From NCBI GenBank assembly GCA_934246625.1, contig CAKQHZ010000001.1, positions 434,964 to 498,963 on the forward strand: a stretch of 64,000 nt of DNA. Direction: 5' to 3'. This DNA comes from an uncultured Alphaproteobacteria bacterium. GTDB lineage: Bacteria; Pseudomonadota; Alphaproteobacteria; Rs-D84; CACZYB01. This document shows, one piece after another, positions 2,634-60,378 of this stretch. A model generated the notes under the pieces. The model was not told where the DNA came from. It did no database searches and saw only the letters and a program-made list of their open reading frames with translations. The first letter of the stretch is position 1, and each line of letters begins with the position of its first letter. The translations under genes were made by a program, and so were the position numbers.

Positions 2634-2642
2634 TTTTGCTTC

Positions 2643-2936
2643 CTATGGTGCGAATTTGTTGCCATTTTCTTTTATTATATTTTTTGTTTTTGCCTTTATA
2701 TTATTCCTTGCACGGATAATATTGTCGATGTGAGGGTCGTGTTTTGCAAGTAAAATCAAAAAAAGATGTATAATTATTATTCCAAGTATTGGTATCCATA
2801 TATATCCCATATAGCCAAAGGTTAGGCATAATAGCATTATAACCACGCCAACAGCGATATTAAACATTGCCAAACCAAATGGTGCAAAAAACATTAAACT
2901 TGGATATGCAATAGATTTTAAAAGTTCTTCTTTCAA
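2643..2936 (-). CDS. virB3: Type IV secretion system protein VirB3 (97 aa, two TM helices)
   Basis: Small bitopic membrane protein directly upstream of, and in the same orientation as, virB4 with a 9-nt gap. This is the canonical virB3-virB4 arrangement. Confidence 0.75.
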   Translation of the reverse strand: MKEELLKSIAYPSLMFFAPFGLAMFNIAVGVVIMLLCLTFGYMGYIWIPILGIIIIHLFLILLAKHDPHIDNIIRARNNIKAKTKNIIKENGNKFAP

Positions 2937-3074
2937 TATATTCCCCCCATATATACCTTATTAATTTTACAAAAATAAGCATAAAAAGACAAGTAAAAAG
3001 TTAGAGTTAGTTGGAATATCTTCTCCTTTTATTTTTTAATTATTTTTATAGTATGATTTTGAAAGGAGTTTTTT

Positions 3075-23747: not shown

Positions 23748-24056
23748 ATGATGAAAAAATTTCTATTATTTTTTTCTATTTTATTTTGTGTATTTTTCAA
23801 AGTGAATTCTTCCGTTTATGCAACTGTAAGCAGCAATTCTCTTGAAAAAATTCTATTTCAATATTGTGTTCCAAAAGAAGGAAATTGTGATGTAAAAGCC
23901 ACATATAAAAACGGTAAATGTATTTGTCCTGGTGATAAATTATATATGGACAGAGAATGTTTTAAACCTGTTTGTCCTTCTGGAACTTATATCTATTATA
24001 GTAACGACACAGATTCTTGTGGTGCGGGAAATTACAGAACAAAAGTCAGAAATTAA
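23748..24056 (+). CDS. Small secreted Cys-rich protein (102 aa) with a QYCVPxEGNCDVKATY module
   Basis: Signal peptide. 10 Cys in about 75 mature residues. Paralogous to 43731..44147. Confidence 0.7.
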   Translation: MMKKFLLFFSILFCVFFKVNSSVYATVSSNSLEKILFQYCVPKEGNCDVKATYKNGKCICPGDKLYMDRECFKPVCPSGTYIYYSNDTDSCGAGNYRTKVRN

Positions 24057-24150: not shown

Positions 24151-25227
24151 ATGAACAATAAAAAATATATAATATCGGTAATAGGTGTGTTATCTTTTGT
24201 TGGAATTGCACACGCTGCTATTTTTCAATGCAGAACTTGTGAAGAGGGGACTTATGGTGATGGAACATCTGTAAGTTGCACAAAATGTCCGACTGGGGCA
24301 GTTTGTCCTGAGGGAACTGGAGCACCAATTTATTTATCAAATTATAAAGATAAGTTATTATCTGTATGTGGTGAGATAGGTAAGGAAATTGCAATAGATA
24401 CAGGTTTTTCTTCCAGTAATTTTGTTTCAGAAATGATTGATAAACAAAAAGTAAAAATAAATTATAGTGGAGATATAATTAAAAAGGGAGAAAGTGGTTA
24501 TAATTATGCAAGGGCATATTATGAAGTTAGTTGTTATGATCTTGATGGTTATTATGCAAGTAGTGGATATAAAGCTATTACAGATTTTATTCAAAGCAAA
24601 ATATGTAATGATGAATCAGAAGTAAAAAGTCATTTAGAACCTATGAGTTCATCATCAACTTTAACACCTGGAATATATAGGATTGATGTAGCTGGTGCCG
24701 GTGGTGGCGGTGCAGGTGGAAATGCTTGTGGATGGTGTTATGGAGCTGGTGGAGGTTATGGAGGTAATGGTGATTTGCAGACTAGATATATATATTTAGT
24801 TGATAATCAGCCTTATAATTATGTTGTTGGTGCTGGTGGTGGTAATGGTTGTGGTTCTGGTTGTAATCATCGTGGAGTAAATGGTAAGAAAGGTGGAACA
24901 TCATCCTTTACTTTGTTAGGAAATGTTTTTGAGGCATTAGGTGGAGATGGTGGAGAATCTGCACATAGTGGTTGTGATGTGTCTAATGGTAAAAATGGTG
25001 CTGCTGCTGGTAATGGTTTAGGTGGTGTTGGTGGTGAGAATAGATATGGTAACAAATGTGCTTATGATGGAAATACTGGTTGGGTAAAGATTTATCAAAT
25101 TGGTATGAGAAAAACCGGTTGTCCTTCTTTAAGACCATCTACTTCTTCTGGTGGATGTTCTTCAGGTGGTTATTTTGGCGGTTGCTCTACAGGTGGTTAT
25201 TTTGGTGGTTGCTCAGGAGGATACTGA
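24151..25227 (+). CDS. Secreted Cys/Gly-rich protein (358 aa) with an ephrin-receptor/TNFR-like CxxCxxGTY...CxxCPxG repeat, a glycine-rich domain and C-terminal GGYFGGCS repeats
   Basis: Signal peptide ...GIAHA. CRTCEEGTYGDGTSVSCTKCPTGAVCPEGTG. Gly-rich stretch VAGAGGGGAGG...GGGYGGNGD...VVGAGGGNG... C-terminal GGYFGGCSTGGYFGGCSGGY. Confidence 0.75.
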   Translation: MNNKKYIISVIGVLSFVGIAHAAIFQCRTCEEGTYGDGTSVSCTKCPTGAVCPEGTGAPIYLSNYKDKLLSVCGEIGKEIAIDTGFSSSNFVSEMIDKQKVKINYSGDIIKKGESGYNYARAYYEVSCYDLDGYYASSGYKAITDFIQSKICNDESEVKSHLEPMSSSSTLTPGIYRIDVAGAGGGGAGGNACGWCYGAGGGYGGNGDLQTRYIYLVDNQPYNYVVGAGGGNGCGSGCNHRGVNGKKGGTSSFTLLGNVFEALGGDGGESAHSGCDVSNGKNGAAAGNGLGGVGGENRYGNKCAYDGNTGWVKIYQIGMRKTGCPSLRPSTSSGGCSSGGYFGGCSTGGYFGGCSGGY

Positions 25228-30989: not shown

Positions 30990-31592
30990 ATGAATACAAA
31001 AATTATTTCAACAGGTTTAATCCTATCTTCACTTATACTTATGGCTCCTAAAGCAGATGCTTACTATATCGGTGCTTCTGTTGGTTCTTCAAAAACAAAA
31101 GTTAGTGTGGAAGATAAAATTAATATGCAAAGTAAAACTGCTTTTACAGTTTCTACTGGTATGGAAATTCCTCTACCTCTTATTCCAATAAGAGCTGAAG
31201 TTGAATATTTACAACTTAATTCTGATAAAGATGGAGCAGATTTGAAAACTTATGGAGTTGGTGCAAATGCTTATGTTGGATTGCCACTTCTTCCTATTAT
31301 TAAACCTTATGTTGGTATGGGATTGGGTTATTTAAAACAAGATCTAAAAATGCCTGCTGATTTTGATGATGATGATATTTATGAATCAAAAGTTAAGACA
31401 AAATCAGATTGGACAGTTGTTCCACAATATATGATTGGTCTTGATGTATCACTTCCTATTATCCCAGTTGCTGGTGGTGTTGAATATAGATATATCGATT
31501 CTAAATTCAAAGGATTTAATGATACAGAAGAAAATTTTAATGCAAAATCAAAAATCCATACTTTCTTAATGAAAGCAAGAATTAAATTCTAA
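30990..31592 (+). CDS. Small outer-membrane beta-barrel protein (Omp25/Omp31/OMP_b-brl-like, 200 aa)
   Basis: Signal peptide ...APKADA. Alternating hydrophobic beta-strand pattern. C-terminal aromatic ...ARIKF. Confidence 0.65.
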   Translation: MNTKIISTGLILSSLILMAPKADAYYIGASVGSSKTKVSVEDKINMQSKTAFTVSTGMEIPLPLIPIRAEVEYLQLNSDKDGADLKTYGVGANAYVGLPLLPIIKPYVGMGLGYLKQDLKMPADFDDDDIYESKVKTKSDWTVVPQYMIGLDVSLPIIPVAGGVEYRYIDSKFKGFNDTEENFNAKSKIHTFLMKARIKF

Positions 31593-31615
31593 GATTTAAT
31601 TTTTGGAAAATTAAA

Positions 31616-31648
31616 ACTGTCATATTTTTAGTATGGCAGTTTTTTTTA
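31616..31648 (+). terminator. Rho-independent terminator after the OMP gene (ACTGTCATA-N7-TATGGCAGT plus T8)
   Basis: 9-bp stem with one G-U pair, followed by TTTTTTTT. Confidence 0.7.
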
Positions 31649-31774
31649 TTGCCTTTTTGTTTCAAAAATGATAAATTTTTTTTAGATGTAATGAATAATT
31701 ACATTTAGTATCAAGTGTATAGTGATACGGAGCTTTGAACGGCTTTTTTACTTACAAGGGTATGAATTTTGTGT

Positions 31775-31797
31775 GATACCGTTTGGTATCTTTTTTT
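31775..31797 (+). terminator. Second terminator-like hairpin (GATACC-GTTT-GGTATC plus T7) inside the long intergenic region
   Basis: 6-bp stem and 7 Ts, about 125 nt after the previous terminator. May close a short untranslated transcript. Confidence 0.4.
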
Positions 31798-31961
31798 ATA
31801 CCCAAAGCCCCAACCTTTGTTGGTTGGGGAGCTGTGGTTATACAACAGGAATATAGTCTTTGCTATAGTCTAAAAGCCTCAGAGTCATTGTAAGTATGAT
31901 TGTTCAACTGCCCGACCACTATCTTTGATATGTGGGTTTATTTTATTAAAGGGAGAAAAAT

Positions 31962-32528
31962 ATGAAAATCATGAACAAAAAATTACTTTTATTATATATG
32001 TCTTTATATCCTTGTATAACAAATGCAAATGTATATATGTGTTTGCGATGTCCTGTTGGAACTTATGGTGATGGAAAATCATCATATTGTTCACCTTGTC
32101 CAAAAATAGATGGAGCACATTATTTGGAAGATTCAAAGAATTGTGAATGGGAGTGTGATGAAGGTAAAGTTGTTGTTGCAAAATATGCGAATGGTGGAGG
32201 TTGTTGCACTGAACCAGCTAAACCAAAATGTCCTTCTGTTAAAGTTTATGTTTTCGGTAACTGTTCAGGTTCGGGTTCTCATGGAGGATCTTGTCAACTT
32301 CAATATTCAAAAACTTTGGAATGTGGAGAAAGTTTTCAAAATGATGGGAGTGCGACAAATACACCAAATGGACAATATGATTGTATAACGATGGCTTGTA
32401 GAAGCGGAGGTTTTGTTAAAAATATTAATGGAGAAATGTGGTGTTATAAAGACTCCTATGATATGAAAAAAAATAAAAATGGACGTCATTATGATAGGTC
32501 AGGTGATGCTAAATGTCTAAAAGAGTAA
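31962..32528 (+). CDS. Secreted Cys-rich protein (188 aa) with ephrin-receptor/TNFR-like CLRCPVGTYGDGKSSYCSPCP repeat
   Basis: Signal peptide. 25 Cys. SD AAAGGGAGA. Motif shared with 24151..25227 and 44255..44908. Confidence 0.7.
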   Translation: MKIMNKKLLLLYMSLYPCITNANVYMCLRCPVGTYGDGKSSYCSPCPKIDGAHYLEDSKNCEWECDEGKVVVAKYANGGGCCTEPAKPKCPSVKVYVFGNCSGSGSHGGSCQLQYSKTLECGESFQNDGSATNTPNGQYDCITMACRSGGFVKNINGEMWCYKDSYDMKKNKNGRHYDRSGDAKCLKE

Positions 32529-32533
32529 AAAAA

Positions 32534-32559
32534 GTCCCTAGTTTTGGCTAGGGATTTTT
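32534..32559 (+). terminator. Rho-independent terminator (TCCCTAG-N6-CTAGGGA plus T5)
   Basis: Perfect 7-bp stem right after the stop at 32528. Confidence 0.7.
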
Positions 32560-32717
32560 AATTATCTTTTGTTTGAAAGATGGTGGTTTAATATTTCAAT
32601 TTATTTTTAAATTAAGTAAATAATTATCCATCAAGATTGCGTCTTTCTTTGCTTTTTTTAGTTGATAAATTTTTGCTAATATAGATGCTTTGATTTTATT
32701 GTGTTAATAGATTTTAT

Positions 32718-32754
32718 AAAAAAATTCCCCTTATAAAAACAAGGGGAAAATTTT
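32718..32754 (-). terminator. Bidirectional terminator downstream of the rubrerythrin gene (TTCCCCTT-N8-AAGGGGAA)
   Basis: 8-bp stem flanked by an A-run (plus) and a T-run. Confidence 0.6.
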
Positions 32755-32767
32755 GTAAGATTTTGTT

Positions 32768-33665: not shown

Positions 33666-33785
33666 TTGAAACCTCCTTGGTTAGTTGAACATACTTTATA
33701 TATAGCTTTTTTTTAGGAGTTTTTCAATATAAATAATTTTTGATTTTTATCTATTTTTATGTTATTATTGAAAATAAAGGAAAGA

Positions 33786-35114
33786 ATGGGAATGAAAAAA
33801 ATTTTATGTTTTTTGATGGTTTTTACTTTTGCCGTTGAGGGCTTTTCTGCTCCACGAAAGAAGGCTGGCTCTTCTAAACGTGTAGCAACAGCAGGTAAGA
33901 TAAGGACTGCTTCTTCAACCACAATAACGGCCACAAATTCAACAGAGGAAGATTCTTTTGAATCTTGTATGGATAATATTTGTAAATCAGAACTTTATGA
34001 AGATAAGGGTAGATGTAGATGTTCATCTCAACTTGGAAGAATTGAAAAGGTTCTTCGTGATATTGAAAAAATCCAAAACCAAGCAGATGAAGATAATAAG
34101 TTGATGGAAACTTTGATGAATGTTTCAAATACTGCAAATGTAGATGATACTGTTGGAAGTGTTTATGATAATATTAACAGTATTGAAAAAAAGGCAAAAA
34201 CTATTTCTGCAAGGGCTGTGGATAAAGATTTACTTGTGATGGAAGGATTGCCTTTGTATGAAGTAGGATTAAAGAAATGTAAGGGCTTTTTGGATACACT
34301 TTCATCAAAAGATAAGGATAAAAAGAAAGAAGAATATACAAAACTTATTGAAGGAGATTGTTCTGCTTATACAACTATTTTAAAAGAAAAGGCAGATAGT
34401 GCACAAAATCTTTTGGTGCAAGCACAAAAAAATCGCGAAAAGTTTGATGAACAGGAATATAAAAAGCGTAATCAACTTGATACTAATGCTTGTTATGTAG
34501 AATATGAAGCATGTGCAAAAACCGAATGTGGCACAAACTTTAAGTATTGTAAGGATAGTGCAAAACAAGCGACCGTCCTTAAAAAGTGTCAAGCTGTGAA
34601 TTATGGTAAATGTGAAGATAATAAAACAACGGTTATTGCCGATGTAAAAAAGTATATTGCAAAGGAGCTTGAAAAGGTAAGATTAGTTGATAATTGTAAG
34701 GCTGCAATGGGTCATCTTCAAAATGGAAAATGTTTGTTTAAGGTTATGTATATTGCAGATAAATGTTCAAGTGGTAGTGGTTGTGGATCTTCTCAAGTTG
34801 TATGGGCGACACCACGTCAAAAATTCAAATGTGATGATACACGCGGTAGTTTTAAAGAGCTTATTGCTGGATGTTATGAAAGTTGTTATATTATTGGACC
34901 AAATGATGAAAAGATTTATAAGGGAACAAACCATAGTGATAATATGGGTGGTCAAATTGTTGGTGCAATATTTTCTTTGGGTATAAGTGTTGCACATACA
35001 CTTCCTGGATGTGTAGAAAAAAAGAATATTGATACTTTCTATACTCCTGCGGCTCCTGATGGTTGGGGCGAAGATGGTTATCCAACGAATCCAGAATATA
35101 AGGGAATTTTATAA
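33786..35114 (+). CDS. Secreted Cys-containing coiled-coil protein (about 442 aa) with post-signal KR/S/T-rich tract
   Basis: Signal peptide MGMKKILCFLMVFTFAVEGFSA, then PRKKAGSSKRVATAGKIRTASSTTITATNSTEED. About 28 Cys. Start chosen at ATG 33786 (SD AAGGAAAG) rather than the upstream ATG 33759, which lacks an SD. Confidence 0.65.
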   Translation: MGMKKILCFLMVFTFAVEGFSAPRKKAGSSKRVATAGKIRTASSTTITATNSTEEDSFESCMDNICKSELYEDKGRCRCSSQLGRIEKVLRDIEKIQNQADEDNKLMETLMNVSNTANVDDTVGSVYDNINSIEKKAKTISARAVDKDLLVMEGLPLYEVGLKKCKGFLDTLSSKDKDKKKEEYTKLIEGDCSAYTTILKEKADSAQNLLVQAQKNREKFDEQEYKKRNQLDTNACYVEYEACAKTECGTNFKYCKDSAKQATVLKKCQAVNYGKCEDNKTTVIADVKKYIAKELEKVRLVDNCKAAMGHLQNGKCLFKVMYIADKCSSGSGCGSSQVVWATPRQKFKCDDTRGSFKELIAGCYESCYIIGPNDEKIYKGTNHSDNMGGQIVGAIFSLGISVAHTLPGCVEKKNIDTFYTPAAPDGWGEDGYPTNPEYKGIL

Positions 35115-36452
35115 ATGAAAAAATTTTTAGTATTTGTTGTTTCTTTTGTGGTTGTATTAGGTAGTTTTTTTGATGTGGCTTTTTCTCAAAGAGCAAGGAG
35201 AAGACAAGCATCATCAAGAAAAACAAAACGTGCTGGGAATATTAAAAGGGCGGCAACTTCTGGTGGAAGTGGGGCAAAATCTTCTGGAAATACAAAAAAG
35301 GCAACTGGTTCAAAATCAAAAAGTAAAAGTTCCTCTTCTTCAAAAAGTGGGTCTTCCTCCTCCTCTTCATCATCATCATCTTCTTCTGATGAAGGGTTGT
35401 CAGCTGAACTTAAATGTCTTCAACAAAATCTTTCTTCTCTTTTAGGAGATAAATGTAAGTTTGTTGTGGATTCTGATATAACTTCTGCTTTGGAAGGAGA
35501 AGATTTATATTGTGTTTATAATTATAAGGATAGTGGTAAAACCTCAAGTGTTTATAATTATTATTTGAATGCTTATTATGGTGTTTCAGAAACATCTGTA
35601 AAGTCAGATACTTCCATCGTTAATGTGAAAAATAGTTCTAAAAATGCACTTAAGTATTATCAATATTTGATTGATGAAATTGCAAATGGAACATTAAAGG
35701 AAAGTAAAATTCTTGATAGTGTTACTGAAAAGGTTTTGGAAAATTCAAATGTTGCAAATGATGTGCAAGGTGTTATTGAAAAAAAAAGTGTTGAAACTGT
35801 GCCATTATCAATGAGTATTGTTTCTTCGGATTTGGAAAATTGCACAAAGGCGACGAAGGCAATTTTAAAAGAGTGTGGTGCGATTGGTAATCAAACAGTT
35901 AAAAAGAAAATTTCTGAAAGTTGCACCGCTTATAATGCAGTATTGTTAAAACTTGCTGGTAATAAAAAGACAGAAGCTCTTGGTTTCGAGGGTGAAATTA
36001 TAAATGCATTGAAGGAACGTGCAAATGCAGACTTTTATGATTATAAAGAGCTTGTTGAACAACAGGCTGAAAAGTTGAAACTTGATGAACAATATGCAGA
36101 AACACAAAAGAAAACAAAGCTTTTGACACTTAAGAATAAGCGTGATGATACTGCAAGTAAATTGGTTGAATTGCGAAATAGGATAAAAGGACTTAATTCG
36201 GATGATTCTGCAAAGGAAACATTTGAAAGTCAGGCAAATACTTATGCAAGCTCACTTTGTCTTTTGGATCAACAAATTTCAAGTTTGGATAGCACTTATA
36301 AACCATCTGATAATTTAGCAAAGTGTTCAGATGATGATAAAAAAAATGATAGTGATAAAAAAGATGTAGATAAAAATAAAACATCAGAAAGCGGAAATAC
36401 TTCTTCTGGTTCAAATGATACCGCTGGTAAAGCTAATATGGATGCAAAATAA
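35115..36452 (+). CDS. Secreted protein (445 aa) with a KR-rich tract, a poly-Ser run and coiled-coil regions. Translationally coupled to the upstream gene.
   Basis: ATG overlaps the upstream stop (TAAATG). Signal peptide, then QRARRRQASSRKTKRAGNIKRAATSGG..., [29 protein letters not shown]. Confidence 0.65.
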   Translation: MKKFLVFVVSFVVVLGSFFDVAFSQRARRRQASSRKTKRAGNIKRAATSGGSGAKSSGNTKKATGSKSKSKSSSSSKSGSSSSSSSSSSSSDEGLSAELKCLQQNLSSLLGDKCKFVVDSDITSALEGEDLYCVYNYKDSGKTSSVYNYYLNAYYGVSETSVKSDTSIVNVKNSSKNALKYYQYLIDEIANGTLKESKILDSVTEKVLENSNVANDVQGVIEKKSVETVPLSMSIVSSDLENCTKATKAILKECGAIGNQTVKKKISESCTAYNAVLLKLAGNKKTEALGFEGEIINALKERANADFYDYKELVEQQAEKLKLDEQYAETQKKTKLLTLKNKRDDTASKLVELRNRIKGLNSDDSAKETFESQANTYASSLCLLDQQISSLDSTYKPSDNLAKCSDDDKKNDSDKKDVDKNKTSESGNTSSGSNDTAGKANMDAK

Positions 36453-42924: not shown

Positions 42925-43380
42925 ATGGAAAAAAATGTATTATATATTGATGATATAAAAAAGATATTGCCACACAGATATCCTTTTTTGCTTGTTGATA
43001 GAGTTATTGATATTGTGCCTGGACAATCTGGAACAGGTATTAAAAATGTAACAGTTAATGAAGAATTTTTTAATGGACATTTTCCTTCTTCTCCTGTGAT
43101 GCCTGGGGTTTTAATGTTGGAAGCAATGGCTCAAACAGCGGTGCTTGTTGGTGCAACAGATGAAACTGAGGAATTAAAGGGACAAATCGTATTTTTAACA
43201 GGAATTGATGATGCAAAATTTAAAAATAGAGTTATTCCTGGTGATCAACTTCATATCAAAGTTGAAAAATGTTCACAAAGAGGTGCTTTTGAAAAATGGA
43301 AAGCTGCAATCTATGTTGATGACAAACTTTGTGTATCTGCAACTTTGAGTGCTATGAAATCAGGTAAAACAAAGGTTTAA
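42925..43380 (+). CDS. fabZ: 3-hydroxyacyl-ACP dehydratase FabZ (151 aa)
   Basis: IxxxLPHRYPFLLVDRV...HFP..PVMPGVL..EAMAQ catalytic motif. Confidence 0.95.
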   Translation: MEKNVLYIDDIKKILPHRYPFLLVDRVIDIVPGQSGTGIKNVTVNEEFFNGHFPSSPVMPGVLMLEAMAQTAVLVGATDETEELKGQIVFLTGIDDAKFKNRVIPGDQLHIKVEKCSQRGAFEKWKAAIYVDDKLCVSATLSAMKSGKTKV

Positions 43381-43406
43381 ATTTTTATTATTTCAGTTAT
43401 TAAAGA

Positions 43407-43435
43407 AGGGTGTTAATTTTTTAACACCTTTTTTT
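43407..43435 (+). terminator. Rho-independent terminator after fabZ (GGTGTTAA-TTTT-TTAACACC plus T7)
   Basis: Perfect 8-bp stem followed by TTTTTTT. Confidence 0.75.
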
Positions 43436-43730
43436 GTTGCTTAAATCTTTATTATGTAATATCATAAAATTAGATTTGGATTTATCCAAGTTTAGCGTCC
43501 ATAGGTGGACGTGGGACTGTCGTAAGTTCTTTATATACTGCCGTATGTTATTTTACATACGATCTTTGTCCCCACCTTTAGTGGGGAGTCTTTGGTGTAT
43601 GTCCAGAGGATATTTTTATATTCTTAAAGACCAAGGAAATCATCTTGCAGTATATATGATTTACGAACTCCCCGCCATTTATGTGATAAATGGGAAAAAT
43701 TTTGTGATACACAAAAAAGGGGAAGAAACC

Positions 43731-44147
43731 ATGAAAAACTTATCTAAAGTACTTTGTATTTGTGCGGGGGCTATCTCGGCAAATCCTATTAACCTTCAGG
43801 CTAAAACTTTGCTTGAAACCTTGACTCAATACTGTGTTCCGACGGTTGGCAACTGCGACAAAAAGGCTACCTACAATACCTCTGGCAACTATTGCGATTG
43901 TGCCAACATCAACAAATTCTATAACTCTTCGAATCGTTCTTGCGAGAACTGTATCCTCGGCTCTTTCGCAACCTCAGACTATAAAACTTGTGAGCCTATT
44001 CATTGCCCTGACGGCTATGTTGCGACTTTGATTTCCAAAGGGGCGTGTCCAGATGGCTATACTTTGCAACAAATCAATGTGGCTTCGGGTTGTGGCGAGG
44101 GTTATGCGTTGAAGAAGTATAATCCGGCGACGAAGAGTTTTAATTAA
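43731..44147 (+). CDS. Secreted Cys-rich protein (138 aa), paralog of 23748..24056 (QYCVPTVGNCDKKATY module) but with a GC-rich codon style
   Basis: SD AAGGGGA before ATG 43731. Signal peptide MKNLSKVLCICAGAISA. The ORF body is about 43% GC against a genome background of about 30%. The upstream part of track ORF 43434..44147 is rejected as leader. Confidence 0.7.
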   Translation: MKNLSKVLCICAGAISANPINLQAKTLLETLTQYCVPTVGNCDKKATYNTSGNYCDCANINKFYNSSNRSCENCILGSFATSDYKTCEPIHCPDGYVATLISKGACPDGYTLQQINVASGCGEGYALKKYNPATKSFN

Positions 44148-44254
44148 AGATATGGGCGGGAGTTTTTTATCATAGTCTTGCTTCCGCCCTCCCAGATTGG
44201 CACTTTTGAAGAGGGGGAGGTGTCAAGGAAGAAACACCCTCGAAGGAGAAAAAA

Positions 44255-44908
44255 ATGAAAACCATGAAGAAAAAGAAATTAGCGGTGATAGGGATAGCGG
44301 GAATGCTCTCTGCAACACCTGCCTCCGCTCAAACATTTTATCAATGTATGCCTGTAAAGTGTAAAGCAGGAGAGTATGTAAGTGGAAGTAGTTGTGAGCG
44401 TTGCACTGGAGGTTATCGTTGTCCAGGAGATAATAAAAGGTATGCGTGCACAGGCGAATGGGAATATGCAACACCAGGAAGTTCATACTGCTCTACCTTT
44501 GGCCCAAGTGATGTTCGTATTTGGGTTGGTGGTGGCTGTGCTGATAGAGATAGAAACGATCAAGCTCTAATGTCTAAGTTAGTGCCAATTACATCTTTTT
44601 CTACAAAGAAGGAAAATGGTCAAACAAAATATATTACAAACTTTAGTATTCTATCAGACAGAAACAAATATGATAGATCAGGTTTCTTTAATTGTTTAGA
44701 TAATAATTTTAAAAAAAAATATACTTCACAAGAACAATGGTGTAAATATGCAAGTATTACTCTTTTAACAACTCCAAATGCTGGTGGTTCATCAGACTTT
44801 ACCGTAAAACAATATAGTAAAGTATATGGAACGTTAGAGTTTCGATCTAGTTTTGAGTGTTTAAGATTAGGTCCAGGCGGTGGTTGTGCAAATAAATGTA
44901 ATAATTAA
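44255..44908 (+). CDS. Secreted Cys-rich protein (217 aa) with ephrin-receptor/TNFR-like CKAGEYVSGSSCERCTGGYRCPG repeat. Compositionally mosaic.
   Basis: Strong SD GAAGGAGA. Signal peptide ...ATPASA. The 5' 330 nt are about 43% GC and the 3' 320 nt about 25% GC. Confidence 0.7.
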   Translation: MKTMKKKKLAVIGIAGMLSATPASAQTFYQCMPVKCKAGEYVSGSSCERCTGGYRCPGDNKRYACTGEWEYATPGSSYCSTFGPSDVRIWVGGGCADRDRNDQALMSKLVPITSFSTKKENGQTKYITNFSILSDRNKYDRSGFFNCLDNNFKKKYTSQEQWCKYASITLLTTPNAGGSSDFTVKQYSKVYGTLEFRSSFECLRLGPGGGCANKCNN

Positions 44909-60033: not shown

Positions 60034-60071
60034 TTTAACTTTATAATAACAAAAAGAAAGGAAGGTATAAT

Positions 60072-60353
60072 ATGGATATGGGTTTAGTTTGGATTGCAGT
60101 TGCATCTGTGATTGGCGCTTCTTTTGCTGTGGGTCTTGGTGGTATTGCTCCATCACTTGCAGAAGGTGGTGCCGTTAAGCAAACTTTGGCATCTATGGCT
60201 CAACAACCAGATGAAGCAAGTAATTTAAGAAGCACTTTGTTTGTTTCTTTGGCTATGCTTGAATCTACTGCTATTTATGCGTTGTTAGTAGCTATGATTT
60301 TGATTTTTAGTAATCCATTTTGGAACTATGCAGTTGCAAATGTTGCAAAATAA
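60072..60353 (+). CDS. atpE: ATP synthase c subunit (93 aa) with Na+-type binding motif
   Basis: Helical hairpin. Second helix ...AMLESTAIYALLVAMILIFSNPF carries the E-S-T...Y ligands seen in Na+-binding c-rings (compare I. tartaricus [22 protein letters not shown]). Confidence 0.9.
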   Translation: MDMGLVWIAVASVIGASFAVGLGGIAPSLAEGGAVKQTLASMAQQPDEASNLRSTLFVSLAMLESTAIYALLVAMILIFSNPFWNYAVANVAK

Positions 60354-60378
60354 AATTTTTAAAATTTAAGGATTTATT

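Follow-up and report, generated by a model that had tools for sequence, protein, structure and literature searches.

A covariation-supported RNA family in the predicted leader of a strain-hypervariable, cysteine-rich gene of a human-gut alphaproteobacterium

Comparative genomics of GC-rich intergenic regions has yielded the "motif RNAs" of the Breaker laboratory, orphan riboswitch candidates and attenuators in structured 5′ leaders (PMC5737381, PMC6429828, PMC8632094, PMC11109978), and structured RNA candidates of the human microbiome have been cataloged in 16,482 models, with HTH-XRE among the two commonest gene contexts (Fremin and Bhatt 2021, PMC8040213). Here, we analyze the 369-nt intergenic region in front of a gene for a cysteine-rich protein (open reading frame (ORF) 31962–32528, + strand, 188 aa) in a 64,000-nt stretch of contig CAKQHZ010000001.1 from an uncultured alphaproteobacterium. 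This whole stretch, with a GC content of 32%, is referred to as the window, and coordinates are positions in it unless a locus is named. The leader resembles the motif RNAs in that a long, GC-enriched intergenic region of an AT-rich genome holds a covariation-supported multi-stem junction in a predicted 5′ untranslated region, with a terminator-like hairpin before the ribosome-binding site (RBS) and a predicted alternative pairing. It is unlike them in that (i) none of the members tested matches Rfam 15, (ii) several copies of the RNA family occur per genome, and (iii) the associated genes, for XRE regulators and for proteins that are either exported and Cys-rich or large and at the surface, are not metabolic. 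With the Fremin and Bhatt catalog the family shares its human-gut origin and the association with XRE genes; the main text of that paper (PMC8040213) contains nothing that describes it, and it may be among the unnamed candidates of the catalog.

The protein encoded behind the leader has described relatives of its own. In the spacing CxxCPxGTY-x7-CxxCPxG, its N-terminal module is like the Pfam families Ephrin_rec_like (PF07699, formerly GCC2_GCC3), TNFR_ELAPOR1_6th (PF23091) and TNFR_c6. Giardia variant surface proteins, with their CXXC motifs, and conotoxins are Cys-framework proteins that diversify between their Cys residues. The present protein is like them in combining a conserved signal peptide and Cys scaffold with fast-changing inter-Cys loops and a ratio of nonsynonymous to synonymous substitution rates (dN/dS) of about 1 or higher; unlike them, it varies at a single locus between strains of one bacterial species and does not belong to a switching multigene family, and the likeness is one of pattern only. 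The domain behind the N-terminal module is reported to have arisen in ancient eukaryotes, with one bacterial protein found, and prokaryotic Eph/ephrin-type domains have been read as putative horizontal transfer (PMC6993872). In contrast to this picture, the module described here stands at the N-terminus of small secreted proteins that form a family in gut Alphaproteobacteria.

The original prediction for this locus had noted a long, GC-richer and structured 5′ region and had suggested control after the start of transcription. Its description of the region holds: the core of the leader has a GC content of 39%, compared with about 20% in typical intergenic regions of this DNA, it folds with a z-score of −5.1 to −5.3 relative to shuffled sequences, and, of the intergenic regions tabulated for the window, only one is longer than this one, whose GC content is among the highest there. 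We searched the related loci and the window with the target leader using blastn and nhmmer and found no relatives, so that the element at first seemed unique; only a covariance model (CM) uncovered a family. The CM built from the target leader alone (R1) recovered a second site in the window (43526–43661) and sites in loci L013 and L014 at E values of 1e-3 to 5e-3. Leaders of the type of this second window copy (W2) yielded, by nhmmer, more copies in L013, L015 and L016, ahead of small XRE/HTH_3 regulator genes. The model R2 found 14 family members in total, including copies on four metagenome contigs of 35–51% GC and, at E 1.4e-4, the leader of an operon that contains P0009, a distant relative of the target protein; the intergenic region upstream of this operon also folds exceptionally well (z-score −6.6). 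R2 scores the structured core in front of the target gene (W1, 31704–31917, +) at 109 bits and W2 at 172 bits. The third model, R3, was built from eight other members with the target leader left out, and finds the target leader at exactly 31704–31917 (52.2 bits, E 5.9e-11).

RNAalifold applied to a seven-sequence alignment returns a Pa hairpin, P1 (GGG/CCC), a 7-bp long-range P2, a Pd hairpin and a two-part Pe, with compensatory changes in 17 of 34 pairs. In alignment A7, which resulted from the R2 search, 92% of the cells are paired, compared with 38–55% when the partners are slid by 1–3 columns, and changes on both sides occur in 25 of 34 pairs, compared with 4–12 in the slid controls; none of 500 shuffles reaches the observed pairing values. 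Since A7 was fitted to the model, which inflates the pairing percentages, we added the R3 search and single-sequence minimum free energy (MFE) folds as independent checks, the latter mitigating the inflation by needing no alignment. All ten members folded in this way give a rod of P1, P2 and P3, which encloses three stems in eight of them and two or four in the others. In W1, the Pa hairpin (31708–31728) precedes the closing rod of P1 (31729–31733/31910–31913), P2 (31735–31742/31900–31907) and P3 (31746–31757/31888–31899), folded as GGAGC/GCCC, UUGAACGG/UUGUUCAA and UUUUACUUACAA/UUGUAAGUAUGA, and the three enclosed stems are Pc (31758–31803, enlarged in this copy), Pd (31808–31829) and Pe (31832–31882), all on the + strand. 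The sequences of P2 and P3 are wholly different in each member folded, as illustrated for P3 by UACUUACAA/UUGUAAGUA in W1, GCAGUAUAUA in W2 and AUGCUUAGUG in L016. The internal loop of Pe is near-invariant in the family (GUAUGUYCAGAG ... CUUAAAG) and altered in W1 (UUAUACAACAGG ... CUAAAAG), where about half of the conserved nucleotides are lost; judged by its sequence, W1 is a divergent member, in line with its lower score. We consider the RNA structure established at the level that comparative analysis allows.

The family has no counterpart in Rfam. In a cmscan against Rfam 15, only tRNAs reach gathering scores, and no Rfam model overlaps the element: W1 and W2 were inspected at E values up to 10, and L016, L035, L048, L066 and L080 at E values up to 0.5. 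An exact-pattern scan of metagenome and viral collections for the Pd hairpin gave no match. The looser Pe-loop pattern GTATGTYCAGAG-N(8-38)-TYCTTAAAG has exact matches in 116 metagenome stretches (L023–L138), only four of which are family members by CM; among the non-members, matches of 35 nt from human-gut contigs form a large class. No family member was found in the viral contigs, phage records and plasmid records searched, so a mobile-element origin is unsupported.

The fold could also belong to the DNA: a palindromic or mobile element resembling a miniature inverted-repeat transposable element (MITE), or the leftover of an insertion, would fold and have no RNA function. The long closing helix does resemble imperfect terminal inverted repeats, both strands fold with similar z-scores (−5.3 and, for the minus strand, −4.9), and related species lack both leader and gene in the corresponding slot. 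However, the copies share structure and almost no P2/P3 sequence, the opposite of a recently spread MITE, their orientation follows the downstream gene where it is readable, no target-site duplication is visible at the element ends, and the window and related loci hold no other sequence-similar copy. Polymorphism between strains bears on the same question. Of the six polymorphic positions in the core, five lie outside the helices of the predicted fold, which leaves 29% of the core unpaired, and at the sixth a C>U change retains a G.U pair on the + strand; G.U pairs and the C>U polymorphism are tolerated on this strand only. We regard a purely DNA-level element as very improbable. Two further measures say nothing in either direction. 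The strand asymmetry in folding energy was rejected as evidence for the + strand, because shuffled controls show the same offset of 17 kcal/mol and the gap is purely compositional, and the leader's conservation within the species (~99% identity) is uninformative on its own because the flanks are equally conserved. Small ORFs in the leader were also rejected as candidates, as none has a Shine-Dalgarno (SD) sequence and a 1-nt indel polymorphism at 31771 breaks the sole 44-aa ORF.

W2 (43491–43676, +) lies in the 350-nt region between fabZ (42925–43380) and a gene for a secreted Cys-rich protein (43731–44147); this region (43381–43730) is the leader that follows the fabZ terminator. The gene encodes 138 aa with a signal peptide and resembles ORF 23748 (by eye) and a 145-aa ORF in L012, and the longer ORF 43434–44147 (237 aa, TTG start) was rejected as an over-call. 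In the leaders of L013 and L014 that are orthologous to W2, a TTGAAA-N17-TATAAT promoter is clearly recognizable, about 290 nt upstream of the ATG. Across the family, copies are co-oriented with the downstream ORF wherever that ORF is readable and in most cases end 10–70 nt before its RBS, with L048 (about 290 nt) as the exception. The genes that follow encode exported Cys-rich proteins, large exported proteins, a lipoprotein, XRE regulators and possibly a methyltransferase; a metabolite sensor would not usually be expected to have such a gene set. At L013, two copies stand back to back on opposite strands (128–459, −, and 495–685, +), with an XRE/HTH_3 gene behind one and a gene for a secreted Cys-rich protein behind the other, which suggests a divergent, co-regulated pair. 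The downstream proteins at L080 and L035 showed no similarity to the Cys-rich ORFs 33759 and 35115 of the window. Next to the W2 gene, the spacer 44148–44254 (107 nt, 48% GC) exceeds all other intergenic regions of the window in GC content; it contains GGGCGGGAG...CUUCCGCCCUCCC upstream of a secreted Cys-rich ORF (44255–44908, QCMPVKCKAGEY...) and is not a family member by CM search.

The target gene itself appears to be a self-contained expression unit. The ORF called in the original prediction is real, with an ATG start and an SD sequence AAGGGAG (31949–31955) six nucleotides upstream that is unpaired in the predicted folds. The bracketing terminators named there are likewise present in the terminator scan: the upstream gene for an outer membrane protein (OMP) beta-barrel (30990–31592) is followed by an intrinsic terminator (31613–31651, +) made of a 14-bp hairpin (31613–31643) and a U-run, invariant among strains save one loop position, and a terminator-like hairpin (32530–32559, +) directly follows the target stop codon. 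As such hairpins follow both genes, the unit looks monocistronic. Just past the upstream terminator, a candidate sigma-70-type promoter (31649–31677, +) can be read from the sequence as TTGCCT (31649–31654), a 17-nt spacer and TAAATT (31672–31677). It ends 6 nt before the 5′ hairpin P0 (31684–31706, +, AGAUGUAAU-GAAUA-AUUACAUUU), which would stand at the 5′ end of the leader; in other family members, the −10 element (TATTAT, TACAAT or TATAAT) is placed 6–7 nt before P0, and the position of P0 matches that of AGAUGUAGC-AAAU-AGCUACAU in XRE-type members, with compensatory changes present. The leader of 310 nt originally proposed agrees with the gap between the omp terminator and the ATG (about 310 nt); the predicted transcribed leader is shorter, about 278 nt (31684–31961), and the full intergenic region longer. 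A terminator-like site inside the leader (31775–31790 plus U7) was re-read as the tip of Pc, its U-run being the 3′ strand of the lower Pc helix.

Every full-length copy has a terminal hairpin shortly before the RBS, in most cases with a U-run behind it. XRE-type members have a canonical terminator, with a 9-bp stem plus U7. In W1, the candidate attenuator or terminator (31916–31947, +) is a bulged 8-bp hairpin, CCACUAUC-UUU-GAUAUGUGG (31916–31935, −6.9 kcal/mol), followed by the U-rich run UUUAUUUUAUU, from which the SD sequence is ~10 nt away; it was missed by the simple terminator scan since its stem is bulged. The 5′ arm and loop of this 3′ hairpin can pair instead with Pa (31708–31724). 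For W1, the MFE structure contains this Pa/terminator-arm pairing at −83.6 kcal/mol, compared with −81.1 kcal/mol for the Pa hairpin together with the 3′ hairpin, a difference of 2.5 kcal/mol. Five of the eight full-length folds leave Pa unformed, its nucleotides being paired with the 5′ arm of the 3′ hairpin or, in L015a, with the U-run, and the alternative states are predicted to differ by 0–7 kcal/mol among the folded members. The predicted arrangement follows terminator/antiterminator logic. The pairing is predicted in both W1 and W2 despite their different sequences. Transcription attenuation is the likely mechanism, because an alternative pairing is predicted.

In such a mechanism, the sigma-70-like promoter past the omp terminator would start transcription at about 31684 and drive a leader of ~278 nt, in which P0, Pa and the P1-P2-P3 rod around the Pc/Pd/Pe junction would emerge in this order, followed by the hairpin and U-rich run ~10 nt before the RBS. 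With Pa and the 3′ hairpin both formed, termination would be favored; with Pa paired to the 5′ arm of the 3′ hairpin, read-through into the gene would be favored. The balance would be set by a ligand or protein that recognizes the conserved junction, and this junction and the Pe internal loop would be the obvious candidates for the effector site.

The same hairpins could instead mark the 3′ end of an independent small RNA (sRNA) gene that has a promoter and terminator to itself and belongs to a paralogous sRNA family, with the Cys-rich gene transcribed by leaky read-through or functionally unlinked. This would agree with the strong canonical terminators of the XRE-type members, with the multiple copies per genome ahead of unrelated genes, and with the SD sequence, which is never sequestered in the predicted folds. 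Yet the ~10 nt between the U-run of W1 and its SD contain no promoter-like site and no other source of transcription for the gene is evident; with neither room for nor sign of a second promoter, the target gene must be transcribed through the element. Co-orientation in all readable cases and, save in L048, the short distance to the RBS, together with the predicted Pa/terminator-arm pairing retained with different sequences in W1 and W2, also speak against a free-standing sRNA, which we consider rather unlikely. The covariation-backed family, the co-orientation, the spacing of the promoter and the hairpin before the RBS support the control after transcription start that had been suggested, as far as the DNA sequence can show.

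The product of the unit would be a Sec-exported protein of ~166 aa with 7–8 disulfides. Its precursor has a Sec-type signal peptide layout (aa 1–22, 31962–32027, +) with MKIMNKK, the hydrophobic stretch LLLLYMSLYPCI and a predicted cleavage site TNA|NV, and this segment is invariant in all alleles but one. The protein contains CLRCPVGTYGDGKSSYCSPCPKIDG and the GSGSHGG and NGGGCC tracts listed in the original prediction; its stated Cys content of 13% was wrong, as 17 of 188 residues (9.0%) are Cys, 16 of them in the mature chain. The constant N-terminal half would open with one Cys-rich unit of the TNFR/ephrin-receptor-like repeat type, C27-x2-C-P-V-G-T-Y-G-D-G-x4-C-x2-C-P47 (32040–32102, +), common to a lineage-specific secreted family: by motif scan, many proteins of the lineage begin with a signal peptide and then C..C..GTY.DG, and canonical tandem repeats occur in some of them. 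The proposed sharing of the module with ORF 24151 is borne out by BLASTP (E 3e-7, 38% identity), the similarity being confined to residues 5–47. ORF 24151 and P0009 have the same signal-peptide layout as the target, with the first Cys 4–5 residues past the predicted cleavage site. ORF 24151 (24151–25227) joins the shared N-terminal Cys module to a glycine-rich C-terminal domain with a weak Pfam match to Gly_rich_2, just below threshold, and is kept next to infB in four related metagenome-assembled genomes (MAGs), each of which also has one or two copies of ORF 23748 (23748–24056, 102 aa), with its C-terminal CPSGTY unit.

Seven clusters, all with the same synteny, came out of a word-indexed search of 5.8 billion proteins; they are 67–97% identical to the query in BLASTP local alignment and 77–99% in alignment A1. 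The exhaustive profile search of 1.84 billion representatives returned the species' own alleles and one true relative, P0009 (E 2.3e-9); two further matches were rejected as repeat-protein artefacts. By these searches, the target protein is nearly an orphan, found in one species and as one distant paralogue among the 1.84 billion representatives. P0009 contains two tandem CxxCPxGTY units and aligns with the target by pairwise BLASTP at 1e-14, with C27, C30, C43 and C46 in register. It is encoded on a separate contig from a sample that also holds the target locus and, as this contig has the same GC content of 32%, it is probably a paralogue from the same genome.

The hidden Markov model (HMM) search proposed as a check separates the two proteins: P0009 passes the Pfam gathering thresholds for PF07699 Ephrin_rec_like (33.2 bits, threshold 23.1) and PF23091 TNFR_ELAPOR1_6th (34.5 bits, threshold 33.2), and the target stays below threshold, with only NCD3G (13.5 bits, threshold 38.9) for the window allele and PF07699 (12.2 bits, threshold 23.1) and PF23091 (14.3 bits, threshold 33.2) for allele P0006. 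The target thus holds one degenerate unit of the type, and these scores support its module as a distant, sub-threshold relative of TNFR/ephrin-receptor-like repeats, linked to them through P0009.

Comparison of alleles shows that variation is concentrated in the 3′ part of the coding sequence. Codons 74–188 (32181–32525, +) are hypervariable between strains: coding-sequence nucleotides 220–567 are 77–86% identical (76–83% for nt 220–420 and 81–94% for nt 421–567), compared with 97–100% (~99%) for flanking genes and intergenic regions, from which only one diverged OMP allele (96%), the downstream spacer (94.6–98.7%) and the second Cys-rich ORF (92%, L006) depart. By the Nei-Gojobori method, dN/dS is 0.4–2.0 with a mean of about 1 in codons 74–188 and 0–0.25 in codons 1–73, and synonymous divergence is raised in the variable part as well. 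The scaffold Cys residues are all conserved among alleles; C101 and C111 are gained or lost as a pair, the window allele gaining both through the loop CSGSGSHGGSC. Alleles also differ by indels, and a 41-aa module is duplicated in three of them. AlphaFold2 (AF2), run on an eight-sequence alignment, predicts a confident beta-rich domain for residues 89–188 (predicted local distance difference test (pLDDT) score 80–90), which has no Foldseek match in PDB or BFVD; this C-terminal domain would be the part that varies between strains. In sequence terms, the gene behind the leader is a species-restricted, strain-hypervariable one for a probably disulfide-rich and exported protein.

Variation so sharply confined to the 3′ two-thirds of a gene might be produced by a dedicated system, either a diversity-generating retroelement (DGR) or cassette recombination. 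The 64-kb window, however, contains no template repeat, silent copy or reverse transcriptase, and DGRs do not make indels and a 41-aa duplication of the kind seen among the alleles; we find such a system hardly credible here. A secreted bacteriocin-like or polymorphic toxin, with a constant N-terminal part for delivery and a variable C-terminal toxic part, is a somewhat better candidate and still distinctly improbable. A small, disulfide-rich, exported protein with a constant N-terminus and a C-terminus that varies with indels between strains would suit it. On the other hand, no co-varying immunity gene is adjacent, and the sole variable neighbor, a 204-aa gene on the opposite strand, is also present in a related species that lacks the target gene. 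Moreover, the variable part shows allelic divergence of one fold at 77–86% nucleotide identity and not the swapping of unrelated modules, and the protein matches nothing in Pfam, NCBIfam or PDB, in searches that did not extend to PHROGs and PADLOC. The most likely role, in our interpretation, is that of an exposed or secreted protein that would face an adversary (host immunity, phage or competitors) and be expressed only under some conditions.

Taken together, the locus is best explained as a monocistronic unit bounded by an upstream terminator with a promoter-like site just past it and a terminator after the stop codon, in which a leader attenuator precedes the gene for an exported, hypervariable Cys-rich protein; judged jointly, we hold this whole explanation to be moderately probable. 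A number of observations weigh against it. In the leader, the promoter matches the consensus at 8 of 12 positions and falls below the 9/12 cut-off of the scan tool, which leaves both the promoter and the transcription start site at about 31684 presumptive; W1 has a weak, bulged 3′ hairpin with an interrupted U-run; no U-run directly adjoins the 3′ hairpin in L013a and L014, and attenuation is perhaps not the common mechanism. The SD sequence is left free in the predicted folds, as mentioned. Given its altered Pe loop, W1 may be a decaying or re-purposed copy, whose response may differ or be nil. The heterogeneous genes downstream give no clue to a ligand, and none suggests itself because they encode exported proteins and XRE regulators rather than metabolic functions. 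As for the protein, its signal peptide was assigned by eye from the sequence, neither an anchoring signal nor one for secretion was found apart from Sec, residues 1–88 have a pLDDT of about 30 in the AF2 model, which leaves the N-terminal half unmodelled, and a dN/dS of about 1 fits relaxed constraint on the loops as well.

The window also contains infB-nusA-rimP, clpP, the OMP beta-barrel gene, rubrerythrin, hpf, rseP, bamA, ompH, lpxD and a gene for a Ros/MucR regulator. By RimP, the nearest genome records are MAGs with 83–85% identity. In the assembly collection, 136 index blocks hold the exact sequence of the neighboring OMP, Hadza gut samples included, and the identical 188-aa target sequence occurs on 12 gut-metagenome contigs; we conclude that the host is a common, uncultured human-gut alphaproteobacterium. 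To our knowledge, its lineage has no cultured representative. In related species, the slot between omp and rubrerythrin contains a different gene, or the gene order differs, so leader and target gene together are a species-specific insertion. The slot is variable within the species, too: some strains carry the 204-aa minus-strand gene between the target and rubrerythrin (L006, 758–1372; L009, 6589–7203), and the window strain retains only a 65-nt remnant of it (32599–32663, ~88% identical) in the spacer 32529–32767. In a related species (slot at L017, 7899–8540), the homologue has 213 aa (31% identity, E 3e-9) and the target gene is absent. Further downstream lie two adjacent, conserved ORFs of unassigned function, 33759–35114 (451 aa, with many Cys) and 35115–36452 (445 aa, with a Ser-rich tract), which have signal-peptide-like N-termini and a basic RKKAGSSKR-type tract, no Pfam or NCBIfam match, and 53–67% identity to their counterparts in the related species at L017. 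Two other long intergenic regions of the window, 60034–60378 (345 nt, 34% GC) and 2634–3074 (441 nt, 28% GC), gave no match at Rfam gathering score.

The original prediction is thus partly confirmed, its observations being largely right save the Cys percentage, and its interpretation is supported as far as sequence analysis can show. More is present than it had proposed, in that the leader is, on comparative evidence, one of two copies in the window of a covariation-supported RNA family without Rfam counterpart. This RNA class is well supported, and its gene set speaks for regulation of the secretome or cell surface rather than of metabolism, a field with few known RNA switches. The protein, in turn, presents a hotspot of strain variation at a single locus on a Cys-rich repeat that has been described as derived from eukaryotes and rarely reported in bacteria; the hotspot is a candidate marker of interaction with host, phage or competitors, and possibly a strain-typing marker. 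We tentatively propose, as a possibility well short of the probable, that the leaders form a new kind of RNA switch, which senses a ligand or a protein and coordinates a lineage-specific secretome in prevalent, uncultured Alphaproteobacteria of the human gut, with at least one target, the present gene, under diversifying selection at the interface with host, phage or competitors. If this is true, the secretome would consist of the small, eukaryote-like Cys-rich proteins of TNFR/ephrin-receptor type, the large exported proteins and their XRE regulators, and the bacterium would possess an RNA-controlled, antigenically variable system of surface or secreted proteins.

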